IMG/VR virus record: IMGVR_UViG_3300025066_001543
Location: 1-37,695 of that record
Reading direction: 5' to 3' (one strand)
Origin: a virus
Taxonomy: Duplodnaviria > Caudoviricetes
Length of the DNA stretch: 37,695 bases
Each line of letters opens with the position of its first letter. Positions within the stretch are counted from its first letter, which is position 1. This document shows, in pieces, positions 12,290 to 24,479 of the stretch. The notes beneath the pieces are model-generated. The model saw only the letters and a program-made list of their open reading frames with translations. It had not been told where the DNA came from and did not search any database. The position numbers and the translations under genes are program-made.

Positions 12290-12352
12290 AATAGTTGGAA
12301 GTCTGTGGAATAGTTCGTATCTTTATTATATAAGAAGAAAGATAACAATTAA
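12290..12352 (+). promoter_or_regulatory. Repeated promoter/leader module, copy 1
   Basis: TTG-N20-TATCTTTA; 33-bp core GTTCGTATCTTTATTATATAAGAAGAAAGATAA identical in three copies. Confidence 0.85.
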
Positions 12353-14388: not shown

Positions 14389-14601
14389 GTGAGGGCTAGA
14401 TATAAAATAAACGATAAGGTTATCGTAAATATTCTAGGAGGTAATCAAGAAGGGATTATATACAAGGTAGATAGGATGGAGACTAAAATTATGTACACAG
14501 TATTAACAAAACGCGGAAGGAAATATCCATACACAGGTATAGATGGTTCGGAGAAATTTTTTAATATTGACTCTAAACTAACAAAAAAAATAAAAAACTA
14601 A
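14389..14601 (+). CDS. Small basic hypothetical protein, possibly SH3/KOW-like beta barrel
   Basis: 70 aa, GTG start, YKINDKVIV..GII pattern. Confidence 0.55.
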   Translation: MRARYKINDKVIVNILGGNQEGIIYKVDRMETKIMYTVLTKRGRKYPYTGIDGSEKFFNIDSKLTKKIKN

Positions 14602-14607
14602 TAAAAG

Positions 14608-14638
14608 TTGTTTGTTTGATAATTTTTATCTATATTTA
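14608..14638 (+). promoter_or_regulatory. Promoter TTG-N20-TATATTTA in front of the ORF-free region
   Basis: TTG 14608-14610, TATATTTA 14631-14638. Confidence 0.7.
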
Positions 14639-14645
14639 TAATATT

Positions 14646-14678
14646 ATTGACAAAATAGTCAATTTACGTTCTTTAACA
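14646..14678 (+). promoter_or_regulatory. boxB-like hairpin plus boxA-like antitermination element
   Basis: ATTGAC-AAAATA-GTCAAT hairpin, then CGTTCTTTAACA (10/12 to rrn boxA TGCTCTTTAACA). Confidence 0.6.
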
Positions 14679-14679
14679 T

Positions 14680-15190
14680 AATGAGGTAATAAGAGGTGCA
14701 CATCACCTGATGTCGAATATAAAAGGCAGGATCAGGTTATTTAAGCATGAGTTAAACGTTTAAAAACGGCCTCTGACAATATAGGAAGGCATTTTATTAT
14801 CGACGGACGATAAAATGTTTTACGTGGCTGAATAATATCTGAACAGAAGGATATAAGGCACTCGATCAGGTCGATGGACCACAGGACTTCACCAAATGGT
14901 GACCTGAACTGGGTAACTCCGGGATTCGAGGTTTTCGTTACAAACAGAACTAACTAGATTCTGTAAGTGGTGTGTAGGTAAATAAATAAATCCTACCTAG
15001 TGACGGAATAACGCGTTGATTGTGGCGTAACGTATTTTTTCTTACTATAGTAGTTTAACACGATGCTATGGCTGCAAACCATAGTAAGGGTTAATCAAGG
15101 CATTGGTAGAAAAAAATCACCATCTCCAAAAGCAATTTAACGAAATGAGAGTAATCTATAATCTCTCCGTAGGTTCACTTCCTTTTTTAT
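14680..15190 (+). ncRNA. Candidate large structured ncRNA (~500 nt), family unassigned
   Basis: No ORF of 60 aa or more, more GC-rich than flanking spacers, over ten nested helices, own promoter, ends in a T-run; boundaries approximate. Confidence 0.7.
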
Positions 15191-15197
15191 TTTTAAT

Positions 15198-15224
15198 TTA
15201 GTAGCGCTCAATTGAGGTTACTAA
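15198..15224 (+). promoter_or_regulatory. Inverted repeat/hairpin in the hsp20 leader
   Basis: TTAGTAGC-GCTC-AATT-GAG-GTTACTAA. Confidence 0.5.
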
Positions 15225-15271
15225 GAGTTATTAGATTTTTAATTATTAATTTCAAAACAAAAGGTTTTATT

Positions 15272-15739
15272 ATGAAACACTTACCAAACATTTTTAAACA
15301 CAGAGACAGTTTTGTCAACTCATTTGACAAAATATTCGACCAAATGGTCCAAAAACAATATCCAACACTAACAAACGAATTAGGAGTTGATTTCTTTTCC
15401 AAAACATCTTATCCAAAAGTAGATATTATCGATTATAACGATAGTATAAAAATTGTATCAGAGATACCAGGGTTATCTAAAAAAGATATCACAATTGAAG
15501 TTAAAGACGGTACTTTAACGATTTCAGGTAAAAAAGCAACAAAAGGTGATTCCACTGATACAAAAGGGACATATATCTATAAAGAGTTAAAACATTCATC
15601 TTTTAATCGTTCTTTTACTTTAGGTGATAGTTTAAATACAGAAAAAGTACAAGCTAAATTTAAGGATGGAATTTTAAATGTAACAATCCCTAAGTTAGAA
15701 CCGAAGGAAGAACAAATACAAGTAGTAGATATTGAGTAG
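15272..15739 (+). CDS. Small heat shock protein, Hsp20/alpha-crystallin family
   Basis: YPKVDI, EIPGL.K.DI.I, LTISG, F.RSFTL, AKFKDGILNVTIPK; ATG 15272 preferred to TTG 15212. Confidence 0.95.
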   Translation: MKHLPNIFKHRDSFVNSFDKIFDQMVQKQYPTLTNELGVDFFSKTSYPKVDIIDYNDSIKIVSEIPGLSKKDITIEVKDGTLTISGKKATKGDSTDTKGTYIYKELKHSSFNRSFTLGDSLNTEKVQAKFKDGILNVTIPKLEPKEEQIQVVDIE

Positions 15740-15746
15740 TAATAAT

Positions 15747-15771
15747 AAAGGGACATAGTCCCTTTTTCTTT
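15747..15771 (+). terminator. Intrinsic terminator after hsp20
   Basis: AAAGGGAC-ATA-GTCCCTTT then T-rich run. Confidence 0.8.
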
Positions 15772-15827: not shown

Positions 15828-16616
15828 ATGAAAGTATCACATGAGTGCCCGTTATCACTTCTAGAGGAAAGTAGAAATTTTAACGATTATTGTTACGCTT
15901 TAGTACACCTATTTCCAGATCATCCACAATATTATAATTTCTTTGCTGAATCACTCCACCGTTACGGTAGGAAAGTCATTTTAGATAATAGTATATTTGA
16001 ATTAGGTACAGCGTATGAACCCGAAGAGTTTGTAAAGTGGATATTAAGACTGAGACCAACAGAATATATTATACCTGATACATTAGAAGATTCAGCTAGT
16101 ACTGTACGAAACGGTATAAGTTTTACACAAGCATATCCTGATCTGCCTGGAAAAAGCATCGGTGTAGTACAGGGTAAATCTTACGATGATATAGTTTGGT
16201 GTTACAGGAATTTAGATAAAGGAGTAGGTGTTGATAAAATAGCAATTAGTTTTGATTATTCGTACTATCAGAGCTTAGTACCTAGTGAAAATAAATACAT
16301 AAGTTTTATGTTAGGTAGAATAACATTAATTAATATGCTACTAAGAGATAGGGTAATTAATTTAAATAAGCCACATCACTTGCTCGGAGCCGCGTTACCT
16401 CAAGAATTTACATATTATAAAGGTATGGATTTTATAGAGTCTGTAGATACTTCATCTCCAGTTGTACATGCAATTAAGGGCATTCGTTATAATGATTGGG
16501 GATTATTAAATAAAGAATCACAAAAATTAGTAGATCTATTTAATACTAAAGAGGATAGCATTAACAAAGAAACACTTTATTATAATCTAACTAAATTTAA
16601 GGAATTTGCTCAATAA
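15828..16616 (+). CDS. TGT/DpdA-like TIM-barrel protein, candidate 7-deazaguanine transglycosylase
   Basis: ILDNSIFE, GVVQG, HHLLG and SVDTSS resemble transglycosylase motifs (LDSG.F, G..QG, HLLG, DS); heads the que cluster. Confidence 0.65.
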   Translation: MKVSHECPLSLLEESRNFNDYCYALVHLFPDHPQYYNFFAESLHRYGRKVILDNSIFELGTAYEPEEFVKWILRLRPTEYIIPDTLEDSASTVRNGISFTQAYPDLPGKSIGVVQGKSYDDIVWCYRNLDKGVGVDKIAISFDYSYYQSLVPSENKYISFMLGRITLINMLLRDRVINLNKPHHLLGAALPQEFTYYKGMDFIESVDTSSPVVHAIKGIRYNDWGLLNKESQKLVDLFNTKEDSINKETLYYNLTKFKEFAQ

Positions 16617-17178
16617 CGAAAATAGGCCTTGGATAGCTTTTTTTTCGCAAACAGGGACAGAGATAGTAAATATACATAAACAGTTAGGCGTTACACCTGA
16701 TATGATTGTAACAAATAATAGACCATCTCATCTACGTACAGTAAATGAATATATTTACAGAAACTGGGGTGATAAATTTTATATGTTACCTAATAAACCT
16801 ACAGTTAGTAATTATAAACAAATAATAACTAAATTACATAATCCGTTAATAACATTACACGGGTGGTTAAGAATTGTACCAAAAGCTATAGTTGAGCAGT
16901 ATGAAATATATAATGGACACCCTGCATTAATTAACGAACATCCAGAATTAAAGGGAAAGGATAAACAAGAGGATATATTTTATCATAAAAATAAGTACCC
17001 GGTCGTAGGATCTGTAATACATCAAGTTACAGAAGGTGTTGATGAAGGGGATATTTTAATTAGTGTTAGTGCTCCTAACACAGCTAAAAATTTAGATGAT
17101 GCATACAATATATTATATAAAACATCGTTTGAAACATGGAAAACTTTTTTTAATTCACAAAAAGGTTTGGGAAAGTGA
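16606..17178 (+). CDS. PurN-like formyltransferase, candidate DpdN-type preQ1 formyltransferase
   Basis: FFSQTGT, LHGWLRIV, NGHPAL, GSVIHQVTEGVDEGDI match the formyltransferase fold (N.HP, H.V...D.G.I). Confidence 0.85.
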   Translation: MLNNENRPWIAFFSQTGTEIVNIHKQLGVTPDMIVTNNRPSHLRTVNEYIYRNWGDKFYMLPNKPTVSNYKQIITKLHNPLITLHGWLRIVPKAIVEQYEIYNGHPALINEHPELKGKDKQEDIFYHKNKYPVVGSVIHQVTEGVDEGDILISVSAPNTAKNLDDAYNILYKTSFETWKTFFNSQKGLGK

Positions 17179-17197
17179 TAAATTTTTCTTATATTAA
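17167..17197 (+). promoter_or_regulatory. Promoter TTG-N20-TATATTAA upstream of the kinase
   Basis: TTG 17167-17169, TATATTAA 17190-17197. Confidence 0.6.
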
Positions 17198-17215
17198 GAT
17201 AAAATTAATAACGAT

Positions 17216-17752
17216 ATGGTAATAGCTTTTTCTGGGACACACTCTACAGGTAAAACAACATTATTAGATAATCTAAAACATAGTGAAGATTATAAATATG
17301 ACTATACATTCATAGATGAAATAACCAGGAGAATGTCTAAGCGTGGATTAAAAATTAATGAAGATGGAGATGACGTTGTTCAGTTATTAATAATGAATGC
17401 ACATTTAAAAAATGCATTAAATAAAAATGCAATTATGGATAGATGTGTATTAGATGGCGTTGTGTACACACATTGGCTGGTAAACGAAGGTAAAGTAAGT
17501 CAGTGGGTACTAGATTACGCTGTTAATGTATTTCAATTAGTTATAGTCAAATATGATTACGTATTTCATCTTGTACCTGAATTTGATATAGTAGAAGACG
17601 GGGTTAGAAGTACAGATATTAGATTTAGGGATGAAGTAGCAGATTTATTTAAGTTTTATATAAACCGATATAATGTACCAGTAGTTAATTTAACAGGTAC
17701 AGTAGAAAATAGATTACAGCAATTTAAAAAAATAATATATGAAAGAAGTTAA
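17216..17752 (+). CDS. P-loop nucleotide/nucleoside kinase (NadR/AAA_28/dNMP-kinase-like)
   Basis: Walker A GTHSTGKTT, MDRCVLD, EDGVR lid-like motif. Confidence 0.8.
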   Translation: MVIAFSGTHSTGKTTLLDNLKHSEDYKYDYTFIDEITRRMSKRGLKINEDGDDVVQLLIMNAHLKNALNKNAIMDRCVLDGVVYTHWLVNEGKVSQWVLDYAVNVFQLVIVKYDYVFHLVPEFDIVEDGVRSTDIRFRDEVADLFKFYINRYNVPVVNLTGTVENRLQQFKKIIYERS

Positions 17753-18635
17753 ATCAGTAATTGACATTGCAAGTAAGCATTTAGGCCAAACAGTAAGTAG
17801 CTATTCAGATAGGTATGATAAAAAACTATTAGTTCGTGTACCTAGATATCTTAATAGAGAAGCTTACGGAATTAATGAAGATGATCTTCCATTCACTGGA
17901 TATGATGTGTGGAATGCCTATGAAGTATCTGCAGTTACAAATAACGGAAGACCGGTTTCAGGTGTACTAAAAATAGTTTACTCTGCAGATTCTGAATTTC
18001 ATGTAGAATCAAAAAGTATAAAATTATACTTAAATTCATTTAATATGCACCCTTGTGGAGATACAGTTGAGGAATGTGCTACAGTTATTGAAAATACAGT
18101 AAAAAGAGATTTAGAAAAATTATTAAATACTGATGTACAGATCAAACTCTTTACGAAAAACGATTCTATAATTTGTTTTACTGATTATAAATCACTAGAT
18201 ACATTAATAGACTTAGACAGTATTAAGTTTGATACATATAAATCAGATTCTGAATTACTAACTGGTGAATATACAAAAGATCTAAATACTGTAAAAATAC
18301 ATAGTGACATGCTCCGCAGTAATTGTAGAGTTACCAATCAACCTGACTGGGGCGATATATACATTCACATTAAAAGTAATTATAAAATAGATTACAGTTC
18401 AATAGCTAAGTATATAGTCTCACATAGAAAGGTATCTCATTTTCACGAAGAGATATGTGAGATGGTATTTAAACATCTACAAATAGCATATAGACCAGAA
18501 GAGTTAATGGTTACTTGCTTATATACTAGAAGAGGGGGAATTGATATTAACCCAACAAGAACAACACATACAAAATTAATACCACATATGTTTAGTGGTA
18601 CATCATATTTAAATGGCAAAACATTAAGACAATAA
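17739..18635 (+). CDS. queF: NADPH-dependent preQ0 reductase, bimodular type
   Basis: DVWNAYE, ESKSIKLYLNSF, RSNCRVTNQPDWG, FHEE, YTRRGGIDINP. Confidence 0.95.
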   Translation: MKEVKSVIDIASKHLGQTVSSYSDRYDKKLLVRVPRYLNREAYGINEDDLPFTGYDVWNAYEVSAVTNNGRPVSGVLKIVYSADSEFHVESKSIKLYLNSFNMHPCGDTVEECATVIENTVKRDLEKLLNTDVQIKLFTKNDSIICFTDYKSLDTLIDLDSIKFDTYKSDSELLTGEYTKDLNTVKIHSDMLRSNCRVTNQPDWGDIYIHIKSNYKIDYSSIAKYIVSHRKVSHFHEEICEMVFKHLQIAYRPEELMVTCLYTRRGGIDINPTRTTHTKLIPHMFSGTSYLNGKTLRQ

Positions 18636-18655
18636 TAAAATAATATAAATAAATT

Positions 18656-19459
18656 ATGGATAACAAAAAACAAAAAACAGCTGTTGTTTCACTTAGTGGT
18701 GGGATGGATAGTACAGGATTACTAATGCATTTGTTAGCTGACGGTTATAAAGTGTATGGTATTAGTTTTTACTATGGACAAAAACATAGTGTAGAGTTAG
18801 ATAAGTTACAAGAGAATTTAGCTTATTTAAATTCAAAAGGATATACAATCGAACATAATTTAGTAGATCTTTCATCAGTGATGGGAATATTCAATTCAGC
18901 GTTAACGGATCCTAGCTATGAAGTACCAGAAGGACATTACGCTGAAGATAATATGAAAGCTACGGTAGTTCCTAATAGGAATGCAATTTTTAGTTCAATC
19001 GTATACGGTTATGCACTATCACTTGCAACTAAATTTGACACACAAGTAGATATTTGCTTAGGGGTACACTCGGGAGATCATGCAATATATCCAGACTGCA
19101 GGCCTGAGTTTTACGTGGCTATTCAAGCAGCATTTGATCTAGGAAACTGGGATTCAGAAAAGGTAGATTACTATTTACCGTATCTTAGTGGAGATAAATT
19201 TACTATCTTACAGGATGCAACTGCGGCAATCGATAAGTTAGGATTAAATTTTGATACTGTATTTGCAAATACTAATACATCGTATAAACCTTATCCGTCA
19301 GGAAATTCAGATTACAAGTCAGCTTCTTCAGTTGAAAGAATTGAAGCATTCCTTAAATTAGGAAAAAAGGACCCAGTTCAATACGAAGATGAAACTGGAC
19401 CAGTTGATTTCGATGTAGCTGCAGAGCACGTAAAAACAGTATTAGCAGAACACGTTTAA
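18656..19459 (+). CDS. queC: 7-cyano-7-deazaguanine synthase
   Basis: SGGMDS PP-loop, YGQKH, VPNRN, DH..YPDCRPEF; C-terminal Zn cysteines absent. Confidence 0.93.
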   Translation: MDNKKQKTAVVSLSGGMDSTGLLMHLLADGYKVYGISFYYGQKHSVELDKLQENLAYLNSKGYTIEHNLVDLSSVMGIFNSALTDPSYEVPEGHYAEDNMKATVVPNRNAIFSSIVYGYALSLATKFDTQVDICLGVHSGDHAIYPDCRPEFYVAIQAAFDLGNWDSEKVDYYLPYLSGDKFTILQDATAAIDKLGLNFDTVFANTNTSYKPYPSGNSDYKSASSVERIEAFLKLGKKDPVQYEDETGPVDFDVAAEHVKTVLAEHV

Positions 19460-19468
19460 AAGAGAATT

Positions 19469-19948
19469 ATGGCAAAATTTCAATCAACAAAAATATTCGA
19501 TAATTATTCAGTAGCAATCAGACAATGGAAAGCTCAGCATTCACATTGCTCTTTGCTTCACGGCTATGCGTTAAAATTTAAAGTATGGTTTGAGTCCAAT
19601 ACACCATTTGACGATAATGATGGACTAGATGATATGAACTGGATTGTCGATTTTGGAGGTTTTAAAGATCAACCTGTAGGAAATGGTCTTAAATCATGGA
19701 TGGATAATATGTGGGATCATACCTTACTTATTGAAAGAGACGATCCTTATTTAGATATTTTTGAATCAATGGGTCCAATGGGATTAGCTAAAGTTCATGT
19801 TATGGAAAAAATGGGGGCAGAGTCATGTGCTAAATTAGTATATGATAAATTTAATGAAGTACTATCAAAAACAGATGCAGGTAGATGCAAGGTAGTACGG
19901 GTAGAATGTTTTGAAAACGATAAAAATTCATCAATTTACGAAGAGTAA
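19469..19948 (+). CDS. queD: 6-carboxy-5,6,7,8-tetrahydropterin synthase
   Basis: HCSLLHGY, VDFG, WDH, GAES, VECFEND; context. Confidence 0.9.
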   Translation: MAKFQSTKIFDNYSVAIRQWKAQHSHCSLLHGYALKFKVWFESNTPFDDNDGLDDMNWIVDFGGFKDQPVGNGLKSWMDNMWDHTLLIERDDPYLDIFESMGPMGLAKVHVMEKMGAESCAKLVYDKFNEVLSKTDAGRCKVVRVECFENDKNSSIYEE

Positions 19949-19962
19949 AAAAATAAAAAATT

Positions 19963-21636
19963 ATGGCAAAGAAAAATTTAAAATTTGAGTCTTCCGCTAG
20001 ACAGGGAATTAAGTCAGGGGTAGATAAATTAACACGTGCTGTTAAATCAACACTAGGACCACGTGGTAGAAATGTAGTTATTGAGCAAGCTTACGGTAGC
20101 CCAACTACAACTAAGGATGGTGTTACAGTAGCTAAAGAAATAGAGTTGGAGGATTCAATTGAAAATCTAGGAGCGCAAATGGTAAAAGAGGTTGCAATCC
20201 AAACAAATGATCAAGCTGGAGACGGTACAACAACAGCAATCGTGTTAGCGCATTCGATTGTTAAGCACGGATTTAAAGCAGTATCAAAAGGAACTAATCC
20301 AATTGAACTTAAAAGGGGTATTGATAAAGCTGTTAACTATGTTTCAGGTAAATTAACTGAAATAAGTAAAGAGGTTATATCATCAGAAGAAGTAGCTCAG
20401 GTGGGCACGATTTCAGCTAATAATGATCCAGAGATTGGTGGTTTACTATCTACAGCAATGGAAAAGGTAGGTAAAGAGGGAGTAATTACTGTCGAAGAAG
20501 GTAATACATCAGAAACAACTTTAGAGGTTGTTGAAGGAATGCAATTTGACAGAGGATACATTTCTCCGTATTTCATTACTAATAAAACGTCAATGAAAAC
20601 AGAATTAGAAGATCCTTATATATTGTTATATGATAAAAGAATTACAGCACTGAACGATGTAATGAAAATTCTAGAATCAGCTGTTCAACAAAGTAGATCA
20701 ATGTTAATTGTGGCTGAGGATATTGAAGGGGAAGCACTTGCAACGTTAGTTGTAAACAACCTAAGAGGTACTTTTCAGGTTTGTGCAATAAAAGCACCTG
20801 GGTTCGGGGATAAGAGAAAAGCAATGTTAGAGGATATCGCTACACTCACAGGAGCAACAGTTATCTCATCAGATAGGGGTATGAAGTTATCAGAAGCAAC
20901 TATAGATGATTTAGGTACATGCAAAAGAGTTGTAGTAGATAATAAAACAACTACAGTGGTGGATGGAGCTGGTAAAGAAACTGATATAGCTACTCGAGTG
21001 GAATCCATTAAATCAGAAATTGAAAGTTCAACATCAGATTATGATAAAGAAAAACTCCAAGAAAGACTAGCTAAACTTTCAGGTGGTGTTGCAGTAATTA
21101 AAATTGGTGCAGAATCAGAATTGGAGATGAAGGAGAAAAAAGACAGACTAGATGATGCATTAAATGCAACTAAAGCTGCTGTCGAAGAAGGAGTTGTCCC
21201 AGGTGGTGGAACAGCGTTGCTTAAAATCGGTAACTCCCTATCACGTATGCTACAGGTAATTAATCAAGATGATATTGTACTTGATAACGATGAACAGAAA
21301 TTAGGAGCTGATATCGTTGTCAGTGCATGTTACGCACCATTCAAAGCTATTATGAAAAATGCAGGACTTGATCCACAGGAAATATCAGCTGAATTACCGA
21401 CTGCTGTATTAAGCAGTAAAGGTACTAATATTGGATTTGATGCAAGAAATGAAAAAATCACAGATATGTTCGAAGCAGGTATTATTGATCCGACTAAAGT
21501 AACAAGAACGGCTTTACAAAAAGCAGCTTCTGTTGCAGGGTTAATATTAACTACAGAATGTGTTATTACAAATATCTCAGAAGAAGGTAAGCCCACAGCA
21601 GGTATGCCTCCACAAGGTATGCCACCAATGATGTAA
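19963..21636 (+). CDS. groEL: Chaperonin GroEL
   Basis: [52 protein letters not shown]. Confidence 0.98.
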
Positions 21637-21640
21637 AATT

Positions 21641-22003
21641 AAACCCGCTACCGCGATTATTTTTTTACAAATAAATTTTTAATTATGGAAACAGTAATAT
21701 TAGTATCAGTTTTGTCAACATTAGGTGTAGTTGCAATAGCAATAGCTTTTGCGGTTACGTTTAAAAGGTTGAATAGTAAGGTTGATGTTAACGAACAAAA
21801 TAATTATGATATTGAGTTTCAAGACATACACCGAGAGTTGGAAAATACAACCAACGATTTAAATAGAAGAATTGATGACCTAGATAATAATCATGGAAAT
21901 GAATTCAGTCAGATTTACAGTACAATCGATTCGCGATGTGATAAATTGTACGATTTAGTAACAAATACAAAATAAAATAATTTAAAATCGTGGTAGCGGT
22001 TTT
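21641..22003. repeat. 18-bp imperfect inverted repeat bracketing one small gene
   Basis: AAACCCGCTACCGCGATT (21641-21658) and AATCGTGGTAGCGGTTTT (21986-22003), 16/18 Watson-Crick plus one G-U. Confidence 0.85.
21685..21975 (+). CDS. Small membrane-anchored coiled-coil protein
   Basis: 96 aa, N-terminal hydrophobic helix then heptad-like polar region. Confidence 0.75.
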   Translation: METVILVSVLSTLGVVAIAIAFAVTFKRLNSKVDVNEQNNYDIEFQDIHRELENTTNDLNRRIDDLDNNHGNEFSQIYSTIDSRCDKLYDLVTNTK

Positions 22004-22035
22004 TAAGTAATAACATCAAAAGTGGGTAAAAACAA

Positions 22036-22200
22036 ATGTACTTAGAGAAACTGATTAAAAAGTTAGAAGAGGCAAGAAAGGTATGCAGAACTAACATAGA
22101 AAAGAAAAATGTAGAAATTAATATTAAAATTTGTGAAATGCAAATTAAAATTAGAGAGGGATACCGAAATAAAAGTAAAAAGATTAAAGTCAAGAGGTAA
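22036..22200 (+). CDS. Small basic hypothetical protein (54 aa), not in the ORF track
   Basis: MYLEKLIKKLEEARK...KVKR; TAA overlaps the queE ATG (TAATG). Confidence 0.6.
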   Translation: MYLEKLIKKLEEARKVCRTNIEKKNVEINIKICEMQIKIREGYRNKSKKIKVKR

Positions 22201-22979
22201 TGAGTAATATAGAGAGATTAGAAGATTATAACAAACCAGTAGTGTTGGAACTTTATCCTTGCTTACAAAGTGAAGGATCTCGTGCTGGTTTCCCAACAGT
22301 AGCAGTAAGAACAACAGGATGTACTCATAGATGTTATTTTGGAGAAGGAGGTTGGTGTGATACCTGGTACACAAGTATTCATCCAAACAAAGCACAGTAC
22401 ACATTTAATGATATTATTAAAATATATGATGAAAATCCTCATATTAAAGAAATGATGCTTACTGGTGGTTCACCAACAATGCATCCAAAATTAGTAAATG
22501 AATTAACACATTTTGCTCATGAAAGAGGTATTTTTATCACTATAGAAACTGAGGGATCACATTTTTTAAAAACAGATTACCCAATCAATCTTATTAGTTT
22601 TAGTCCTAAATTTTCTAACAGTGTTCCTGTACTTGGGGTTACCACTCCTGGCGGTGATGTGGTTGACGAGCGATTTATACAAACTCATAATAGATATAGA
22701 CTTAATCTTGAAGCAATGACTGAGATGATTGATTATCATGATGACTATCACTATAAACCAGTTTGGGTTCCCGGAGATGAAAGCGCTTTAAAAGATATAG
22801 AGGAATTTAGACAAGTAATGAAAATTCCAAAAAATAAAACTTGGTTAATGCCCGGAGGTAGCACCAGAGAAGAATTAATACCCCACTACGCAGGTGTTAT
22901 AGATAAAGCCTTAGAGATGGGATATAATTTCTGTCCGAGGGCGCACATAATTGCGTTCGATTCGGACCGTTGCGTTTGA
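22200..22979 (+). CDS. queE: 7-carboxy-7-deazaguanine synthase (radical SAM)
   Basis: LQSEG, VRTTGC...C...WCDT, LTGGSP, IETEG, SPK; context. Confidence 0.9.
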   Translation: MSNIERLEDYNKPVVLELYPCLQSEGSRAGFPTVAVRTTGCTHRCYFGEGGWCDTWYTSIHPNKAQYTFNDIIKIYDENPHIKEMMLTGGSPTMHPKLVNELTHFAHERGIFITIETEGSHFLKTDYPINLISFSPKFSNSVPVLGVTTPGGDVVDERFIQTHNRYRLNLEAMTEMIDYHDDYHYKPVWVPGDESALKDIEEFRQVMKIPKNKTWLMPGGSTREELIPHYAGVIDKALEMGYNFCPRAHIIAFDSDRCV

Positions 22980-23039
22980 TGATAAACGAGGGGTTTAACT
23001 TTAATTAACAAAAATAAAAAATTAACAAAAAGAAAAATT

Positions 23040-23219
23040 ATGGCAAAGAGAGGAAGACCACCTAAAGCGATTGTAAAGCACAATCCATCGTACTCACGAT
23101 TACGAATTAAAAAAGTGTTACAAGATTATTTTATGTCAGATCCAAATAACCCGATTCTAATGGAAAATACAAAAGTAGCTATTAATCACGTTTTAACTCA
23201 ATTAGATGCAGCAATTTGA
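23040..23219 (+). CDS. Small AT-hook-motif protein (59 aa), not in the ORF track
   Basis: MAKRGRPPKAIVK...LDAAI*, long A-rich leader, fills the queE-hpt gap. Confidence 0.65.
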   Translation: MAKRGRPPKAIVKHNPSYSRLRIKKVLQDYFMSDPNNPILMENTKVAINHVLTQLDAAI

Positions 23220-23724
23220 AATATTAGTACCTGAGTACAAGATTGAAAGAAACATTAGACGTATAGCCCAGGAAATTACAGTAGACCACAAAGAAAGTGG
23301 GAATCAATTTCCACCTGTAATGGTATGTGTTTTAAATGGGGCCTTTATGTTTTTTACTGATCTAGTAAAGTGTATGGGTATTGATGTTGAAATCGATTTT
23401 ATCAGAGCTAAGTCTTATGAAGGTAGAGATAACTCAAACGGTGTACAAATTACAAAAGGAATTGAACGCGATTTACGCGGAAAAAGAGTGTACATCGTCG
23501 ACGATTTAATAGATACTGGTGAAACCATGAAAGAAATTTTAGTTTGGCACTTACCTGATCATCAACCTGAAGATGTAAAAACTGTAACATTAGCACATCG
23601 ACGGAACTCTACACATCCTGTAGATTTTTACGCGTGTGAAGTAGGAGATGAATGGCTAATCGGATTTGGTTTAGATGATAACGGATTAAAAAGAAATTAC
23701 AGAAATATCTATGCGAAAGTTTAG
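23206..23724 (+). CDS. hpt: Purine phosphoribosyltransferase, HPRT-like
   Basis: VCVLNGAFMF, AKSY, PRPP motif IVDDLIDTGET, IGFGLD..RN. Confidence 0.9.
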   Translation: MQQFEILVPEYKIERNIRRIAQEITVDHKESGNQFPPVMVCVLNGAFMFFTDLVKCMGIDVEIDFIRAKSYEGRDNSNGVQITKGIERDLRGKRVYIVDDLIDTGETMKEILVWHLPDHQPEDVKTVTLAHRRNSTHPVDFYACEVGDEWLIGFGLDDNGLKRNYRNIYAKV

Positions 23725-23771
23725 GTAATACGAATTATTTTTCATATATTTAACATATTAAAAGATACAAG

Positions 23772-24479
23772 ATGAAAACAAAAAATACAATAACAGGTAT
23801 TGAAAGTGTAGCACCAGGTATGGCGAATGGTATCTCTACACAACTAGCAGAAAAACAAGCCATATACGGTCCTGACATTTCATTAACTGATGCAGAAAAA
23901 AGTGAAATTATAGCTGCAGCAGCTAAACATTTTGGTAATTTTTTAACTGCTCTTGGGGTAGATTGGAGACATGATCCTAATTCCTCTGATACACCTAGAC
24001 GGGTAGCTAAAGCATATGTAAATGACCTATGGACAGGTAGGTACAACGCTCCAACATCAATCACAGGGTTTCCTGCAGATGGATATAGTGGAATTGTTCA
24101 GGAGAGCAACATCCCAATGACTTCAATGTGTAGTCATCATCATCAAAATATACAAGGACGTGTAAGTATCGCGTATGTACCATCTGAAAACGGATTCGTA
24201 GTAGGATTGAGTAAACTGAATAGACTTGTGGAATATTTTTCAAGAAGAGGAGCAATACAAGAACAGTTAACAGTAGCTATACACAGAGCTGTTGATGGAA
24301 TATGTACTGATAATTTAGGAGTAGCTGTTATGATAGATGCAGGTCACAGTTGTGTAAGTTGTAGAGGTGTTAAACATCAGGGAGCTTCAATGCAAACTGC
24401 AAAATTAACAGGCTGCTTTCTTGATGAAGATGCTGCAAGAGCTGAATTTTATAAAAATATAGAACTCTCTGGTAAGTAG
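23772..24479 (+). CDS. folE: GTP cyclohydrolase I
   Basis: DTPRRVAK, SMCSHH, GLSKLNR, IQEQLT, HSCVSCRGV. Confidence 0.95.
   Translation: MKTKNTITGIESVAPGMANGISTQLAEKQAIYGPDISLTDAEKSEIIAAAAKHFGNFLTALGVDWRHDPNSSDTPRRVAKAYVNDLWTGRYNAPTSITGFPADGYSGIVQESNIPMTSMCSHHHQNIQGRVSIAYVPSENGFVVGLSKLNRLVEYFSRRGAIQEQLTVAIHRAVDGICTDNLGVAVMIDAGHSCVSCRGVKHQGASMQTAKLTGCFLDEDAARAEFYKNIELSGK

Follow-up and report, generated by a model that had tools for sequence, protein, structure and literature searches.

A nested double manA RNA in a marine tailed phage, predicted to assemble into an RNA-only cage

Introduction

A 670-nt gap without genes in a tightly packed phage sequence raises the question of what it encodes. 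The gap (14601-15272) lies in IMG/VR record IMGVR_UViG_3300025066_001543, a linear virus record of 37.7 kb and about 21% completeness, which was analysed in full and is called the window throughout. All other intergenic gaps there are far smaller, the runner-up measuring 226 nt, and this one contains no ATG-started ORF longer than 29 aa. The GC content of its two structured parts reaches 39-40%, against 17-34% in the other spacers of more than 60 nt. A preliminary description made from the sequence alone had singled out the gap on both grounds, correctly, and had proposed a structured non-coding RNA of ~500 nt on the + strand, with its own promoter, placed directly before hsp20 and belonging either to a divergent branch of the ornate phage RNAs ROOL and GOLLD or to a new class. 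The family that proved relevant is manA, filed as cis-regulatory since 2010 (PMC2864571) and recently reported to build RNA-only cages of up to 60-mers (10.64898/2026.07.01.735769).

The phage and its probable host

The window is part of a large tailed phage genome. It encodes a gp32-like SSB, RecA, DnaB, a class II RNR, PolB and a clamp loader, along with GroES/GroEL, Hsp20 and genes of the 7-deazaguanine pathway, and the sequencing runs containing the stretch are marine. A promoter pattern of the Bacteroidota type, whose consensus has been given as TAnnTTTG (PMC10309648), occurs ten times in the window, six of these directly upstream of genes or of the RNA; judging from these promoters, the host is probably a member of the Bacteroidota. 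By RecA, the nearest cultured relative is PP395634.1 (L540; 59%), whose gene order is similar. It was deposited with a Microcystis host, whereas the promoters of the window look Bacteroidota-type. manA, ROOL and the motif were all searched for in PP395634.1 and none is present. Against cultured phages, blastn gave only short chance matches for the window and no match for one of its relatives.

Two manA units

At gathering level, an Rfam search of the window returned nothing. Below that level, the full manA model (RF01745) matches 14811-15002 (38 bits, E 4.8e-8) and, when the second half is scanned alone, positions 22-183 of the model match 15000-15168 (16.9 bits, E 0.018), neither half attaining the manA gathering cut-off of 55.2 bits. 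One half does attain it in 6 of 20 related loci of the double type. A covariance model (R1) trained on nothing but the second half of 29 distant relatives matches the window twice, in the inner unit (37.4 bits, E 2.7e-6) and once more (E 6.4e-5), and matches none of 20 control loci.

Relatives were collected with a junction pattern, written for the point where the two halves meet, which found 76 IMG/VR loci, 59 of them distinct; an earlier, looser pattern yielding more than 3000 stretches was not used. A filter asking for the first motif and an end kept 45 of the 59, two of them incomplete, and dropped 14 as chance or truncated, although one of those dropped (L301) is a true member. Searching with a subfamily pattern brought up 7 loci from viruses and 104 from metagenomes, of which eleven are close homologs, alignable from ~14770 onward, and one further locus is the window's own record. 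The profile of the distant subfamily likewise matches the window across the junction (E 2.2e-8). When the junction pattern was run against GTDB, none of the 120 loci among the matches listed fitted either family profile. Judged from its sequence, then, the stretch is a nested double manA: in place of the wholly new class that had been envisaged, it is a variant of manA built from two RF01745 units.

A nested architecture supported by covariation

The conserved RNA runs from 14784 to 15182 on the + strand, as do all its parts, and is closed by helices 14784-88/15178-82 and 14821-24/15168-71. Inside the first of these, a manA P1-like 5' hairpin (14789..14818), with two-sided changes at 6 of its 10 pairs, precedes the outer unit (14824..14930), which is defined by the Rfam manA alignment and by covariation. 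This unit comprises a signature internal loop, capped by a hairpin, at 14824-14859 and a four-way junction with three hairpins at 14861-14930. Two inter-unit helices, the outer P8 (14933-40 with 15138-45) and the inner P8 (14967-72 with 15118-23), connect it to the inner unit (14974..15115), which is defined by its Rfam manA match, by R1 and by covariation. There the order is rotated: the manA 3' hairpin comes first (14974-96) and is followed by a 3-nt linker, the second signature loop (15000-33) and the second four-way junction (15035-15115). The 3' hairpin of the outer unit (15147..15167), with 3 of 5 pairs changing on both sides, lies on the far side of the P8 helices. A second, circularly permuted manA unit sits in the P8 arm of the outer one.

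In the window and 10 close homologs, 90.7% of the cells of a 118-pair structure are paired and 58 of the 118 pairs change on both sides; 0 of 500 shuffles reach this value and slid controls give 41-47%, the structure having been derived from the very sequences on which it was scored, which favours it. A truncated near-copy of one homolog (L405, of L379) was omitted from the alignment. The outer P8 is two-sided at 6 of 8 pairs in the 11 close sequences and again at 6 of 8 in the 29 distant ones, the inner P8 at 2 of 6 and 4 of 6, and in the 29 distant sequences, which form an independent subfamily, two-sided changes affect 12 of the 19 pairs of three long-range inter-unit helices. The single-sequence minimum-energy fold reproduces the nesting. 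Compensatory changes at 14872/14877, 14911/14920 and 14912/14919 also appear in contigs from RNA libraries. Helices 14944/14964 and 15055/15094 are poorly supported in the alignment (51% and 67%), and an unfiltered scan of column pairs was too noisy. Three other readings were set aside: covariation replaced a side-by-side tandem of two units by the nested model, an initial reading as a 90-nt insertion within the second manA motif was wrong, and two subfamilies carrying the units in swapped order are unsupported, both profiles favouring the first half of the window.

The homologs and covariation sought at the outset thus exist, and a structured, conserved RNA on the + strand is real. All 16 helix arms originally quoted are found where they had been placed, and most of the helices are kept with compensatory changes. 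Two lack support. Helix 14933/15000 pairs in 90 of 99 cells with zero two-sided changes, is broken in 3 sequences, conflicts with the nested fold and would unfold the second manA motif; helix 15016/15093 pairs in only 51 of 64 cells and conflicts with the nested fold as well. The pairings that close the RNA (14784/15182 and 14821/15171) had gone unseen, as had the two long-range helices responsible for the nesting. Against shuffles, the folding energy of the interval first quoted (z -1.77 (+), -1.95 (-)) is not clearly better, and the core 14784-15182 gives z -3.5 with 100 shuffles and boundaries picked afterwards. The length shrinks from ~500 to ~400 nt: of the 16 loci that were inspected, only 3 have the part at 14692-14774 in long form, 4 have a short hairpin there and the others lack it.

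Compared with manA, each unit retains the signature loop GUGRCUGAAUAA/UAAGG with its capping hairpin (here at 14824-14859 and 15000-15033) and the four-way junction with three hairpins, both copies of which covary. The P8 arm is likewise common to both RNAs, the 3' hairpin GGUA..AAUCC occurs twice in the window RNA, and the closing helix is present once, the 3-nt linker replacing it in the inner unit. Marine phages, and hsp20/ibpA among the neighbours, are also common to both. manA is a single unit of ~190 nt, whereas the RNA of the window spans ~400 nt in two nested units that are fused through P8, with circular permutation of the inner one; it scores below the cut-off and has its own promoter and boxA-like site. 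The hosts of manA are cyanobacteria, that of the window RNA probably a member of the Bacteroidota by its promoters.

Flanking elements, expression and neighbouring genes

A Bacteroidota-type promoter-like element, TTG-N20-TAnnTTT (14608..14638, +; predicted start near 14645), begins exactly at 14608, which bears out the suggestion that the RNA has a promoter of its own; in promoters of this type the TTG falls at -33. Downstream lies an element (14668..14678, +) that we take to be a boxA-like antitermination site. Among the 57 loci whose upstream DNA is long enough, 48 carry a similar 9-mer upstream, for the most part 39-53 nt 5' of the first manA motif, by a pattern written once the data had been seen. 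The optional 5' accessory domain (14692..14774, +) consists of three nested helices; 8 of its 25 pairs are two-sided in 3 sequences, and its inner helices covary. It has no Rfam match and no true homolog in IMG/VR, where two pattern matches are chance ones in coding DNA. Its reading as a ribozyme or a preQ1 riboswitch, considered by eye against the consensus, was dropped on that missing Rfam match. In the window, L312 and L413 the domain carries a TAAA bulge.

At the other end, a U-rich tract (15183..15195, +) follows the closing helix and is kept in close relatives; it is a possible 3' end signal and has no intrinsic-terminator score. At many distant loci the RNA is immediately followed by a terminator-like hairpin. 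Where such a hairpin lies 20-90 nt 3' of the RNA (L229, L233, L241, L258 and others) it has a conserved inner TTTTTAGTTTCCAC tract, and the same kind of hairpin with TTTTTAGTTTCCAC is seen at L130 without the RNA. In the window, a separate leader hairpin of hsp20 (15198..15224, +; fold -11.3 kcal/mol) stands outside the RNA core, followed by hsp20 itself (15272..15739, +; Pfam PF00011, E 1.7e-21) and, directly 3' of the gene, by a two-way terminator-like hairpin (15747-15765). Similar leader hairpins precede relatives of hsp20 with and without the double-manA RNA, and the element is possibly one of translational control. A GCUCAANNGAG core is conserved in it (L123, L128, L129, L312, L325, L365).

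Six RNA runs from 4 studies contain contigs of relatives 85-99% alike, up to 343 nt long and all within 14790-15162; the runs were picked for containing this stretch, and the contigs show neither strand, true ends nor level. Several have their ends close to both predicted ones, with no loose letters, and one begins at an adapter, at 14791; the other RNA-library pieces listed are shorter than 50 nt. The flanking genes and 14608-14789 are uncovered by these libraries, which proves nothing alone, and DNA run X3 has a hole of its own at 14790-15095. Relatives of the double-manA RNA, and not the flanking genes, are in this way weakly shown to appear in ocean RNA libraries.

These observations bear on whether the RNA is instead a cis-regulatory 5' leader of hsp20, riboswitch-like or a thermosensor, possibly switching between the nested fold and helix 14933/15000. 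manA is listed as cis-regulatory and often lies upstream of ibpA chaperones (Weinberg 2010, PMC2864571). In the window the RNA ends 89 nt before hsp20 with no scored intrinsic terminator between them, so that read-through and co-transcription are possible, and the alternative helix pairs in those 90 of 99 cells in close relatives. That helix, however, shows no two-sided change, the RNA contigs end short of hsp20, the leader hairpin of hsp20 persists without the RNA, and many distant loci place a terminator-like hairpin directly after it. The next gene also varies: among 60 non-independent loci examined, 55 have a downstream ORF, the first being gp32-like in 35 and hsp20 in 8, the window included. 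Conversely, 8 of 10 hsp20 relatives show no sign of the RNA; among seven inspected, it lies upstream of two (a single sequence) and is missing from five, two of these truncated. The position before hsp20 noted earlier is thus true of the window and a trait of a subfamily. We regard the leader reading as decidedly unlikely: given the promoter, the boxA-like site, the RNA contigs and the 8 of 55 loci with hsp20, the double-manA RNA is most likely a stand-alone product.

Relation to ROOL and GOLLD

No score was obtained against either of the families to which the RNA had first been compared. ROOL (RF03087, cut-off 99.1 bits) has no match in the window at E 10 in a search that finds ROOLs elsewhere, nor has the model of the conserved 3' domain of GOLLD; for the second half scanned alone, GOLLD yields just a 26-nt piece (E 4.6). 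GOLLD (RF02032) shares with the window RNA the character of a large ornate phage RNA of unknown function, and is a cage former. The comparison with ornate phage RNAs holds for the size class and likely for the functional class, and the link to ROOL survives only as a resemblance of motif and topology.

ROOL has been described as ~580 nt long, with six multistem junctions as well as three pseudoknots (Weinberg et al. 2017, PMC5737381); like the RNA of the window it is phage-borne and likely a cage former (Kretsch et al., PMC12286853). The two share one arrangement of elements: a closing helix, then an internal-loop hairpin, a four-way junction, a long arm and a final hairpin. In the long arm of both (14974-15011 in the window) an inner module of hairpin then GUGGCUGAAUA is nested in an outer shell, and the Rfam consensus of ROOL contains manA's 3' hairpin together with its signature loop, in permuted order, within a shell of manA topology. 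The window RNA, at ~400 nt, lacks the extra domains and linker of ROOL, and its inner part is a full manA unit. ROOL is often near tRNA genes; a tRNA/tmRNA search found none in the window, and a tRNA lies within 600 nt at 6 of 60 related loci.

Might the RNA then be a compact, divergent ROOL? The same order of elements in the ROOL consensus speaks for it, as do 2 ROOLs among 50 records found by the manA motif, 37 of which match manA. So does the manA signature 9-mer: in 6 of 7 ROOLs found independently of the manA pattern (from 5/151 and 2/151 genomes) it lies 62-65 nt from the 3' end, where ~0.05 would be expected per RNA; five of the seven were rescanned, and the remaining two, near-copies, were read from an earlier scan. 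In the same seven, a strict 3'-type hairpin is at the expected place in 2 and the strict full module in 0, and the covariance models R1 and R2 match 0, R2 resting on a poor 6-row alignment. The missing match at E 10, the difference between ~400 and ~580 nt and a ROOL 5' part unmatched by Rfam manA further oppose this assignment, which we consider very improbable. An attempt to prove homology with ROOL by covariance models failed, and one further test was circular. Shared ancestry of the double manA and ROOL is plausible on motif and topology.

In a class of ~290 nt (L132, L138, L142, L164, L179, L180), a single full manA motif is combined with two hairpins of the 3' type and an inner module like that of ROOL, and several members lie inside tRNA arrays; the class looks intermediate. 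One phage tRNA array also contains a group I intron match (L142:1922-2133). Tentatively, and at somewhat less than even likelihood, these RNAs would form one superfamily of cages in phages (manA, 190 nt; the two-hairpin class, 290 nt; double manA, 400 nt; ROOL, 580 nt) grown by nesting a permuted copy of the core in the P8 arm, with the double manA as the missing link and as a covalent pseudo-dimer whose cross-unit kissing would give a cage of new, non-pentameric geometry.

A predicted RNA cage

On balance we favour the reading of this ~400-base nested double manA as a likely free-standing RNA that would self-assemble into an RNA-only cage acting as scaffold or decoy inside infected cells. The cage is predicted because five manA variants oligomerise through kissing loops: all those imaged are closed oligomers, 8-, 10- or 60-mers, formed via L5-L7' kissing loops (10.64898/2026.07.01.735769), in each case in vitro. 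A scaffold or decoy role is predicted by following the hypotheses voiced for ROOL and GOLLD (PMC12286853).

In the proposed course of events, the host-type promoter at 14608 and the boxA-like site would give rise to an antiterminated precursor in the style of rRNA and tRNA, whose leader, optional 5' domain included, would be trimmed to a 5' end near 14784. The two manA folds, the inner one permuted, join via their P8 arms and the outer helix closes, as the covariation indicates. The hairpin loops of the four-way junctions may then pair between molecules, by analogy with the cryo-EM of manA, and each chain, as a covalent pseudo-dimer, would build alternating, even-numbered rings and not the pentamers of manA. 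Late in infection such a cage might shield or titrate components of translation or anti-phage nucleases of the host, a speculative last step that we hold to be rather doubtful.

The loops themselves admit two outcomes. In the Rfam consensus of manA, L5 and L7 pair within the same unit (GUGGU with ACCA), whereas complementarity in the window is cross-unit only (GAUG with CAUU, UAGU with ACU); even-numbered alternating rings or a self-closed monomer are therefore predicted. Of 45 loop pairs tried in the distant subfamily, one, a cross-unit pair, outscores all 300 shuffles, with relatedness uncontrolled. The proposed kissing loops do not vary in the close subfamily and so lie beyond a test by covariation there. 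A free-standing monomer would satisfy the kissing loops of its two units within one chain, as cross-unit complementarity allows, and would offer a tRNA-like or protein-binding decoy surface without any cage; its 3' hairpin looks like the T-arm of a tRNA, and related RNAs occur in tRNA arrays. All five manA variants imaged are nevertheless closed oligomers, and the loop pairing of ROOL, once drawn as intramolecular, proved to be intermolecular (10.1101/2024.12.08.627333). A monomer seems to us unlikely.

Significance

In searches of the openly readable literature on manA, ROOL, GOLLD and RNA cages, neither a double manA nor a link between manA and ROOL turned up; a supplement that groups manA variants (10.64898/2026.07.01.735769) may bear on novelty. 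A nested dimer that is natural and widespread, that has a promoter of its own and whose neighbours change speaks for the manA fold as a product in itself. It provides a direct test of the effect of a covalent pseudo-dimer on cage geometry, allows a core shared by manA and ROOL, now treated as unrelated, to be tested, and offers a two-valent scaffold of 400 nt for RNA nanostructures.

Other features of the window

A 7-deazaguanine cluster occupies 15828-24479, with QueF, QueC, QueD, a QueE-like gene and FolE. For the 262-aa ORF at 15828 Pfam gives no match; as a guess, it may encode the DNA transglycosylase. Three near-identical promoter-like repeats at 12295, 12985 and 13338 precede short hypothetical genes and are likely early promoters.
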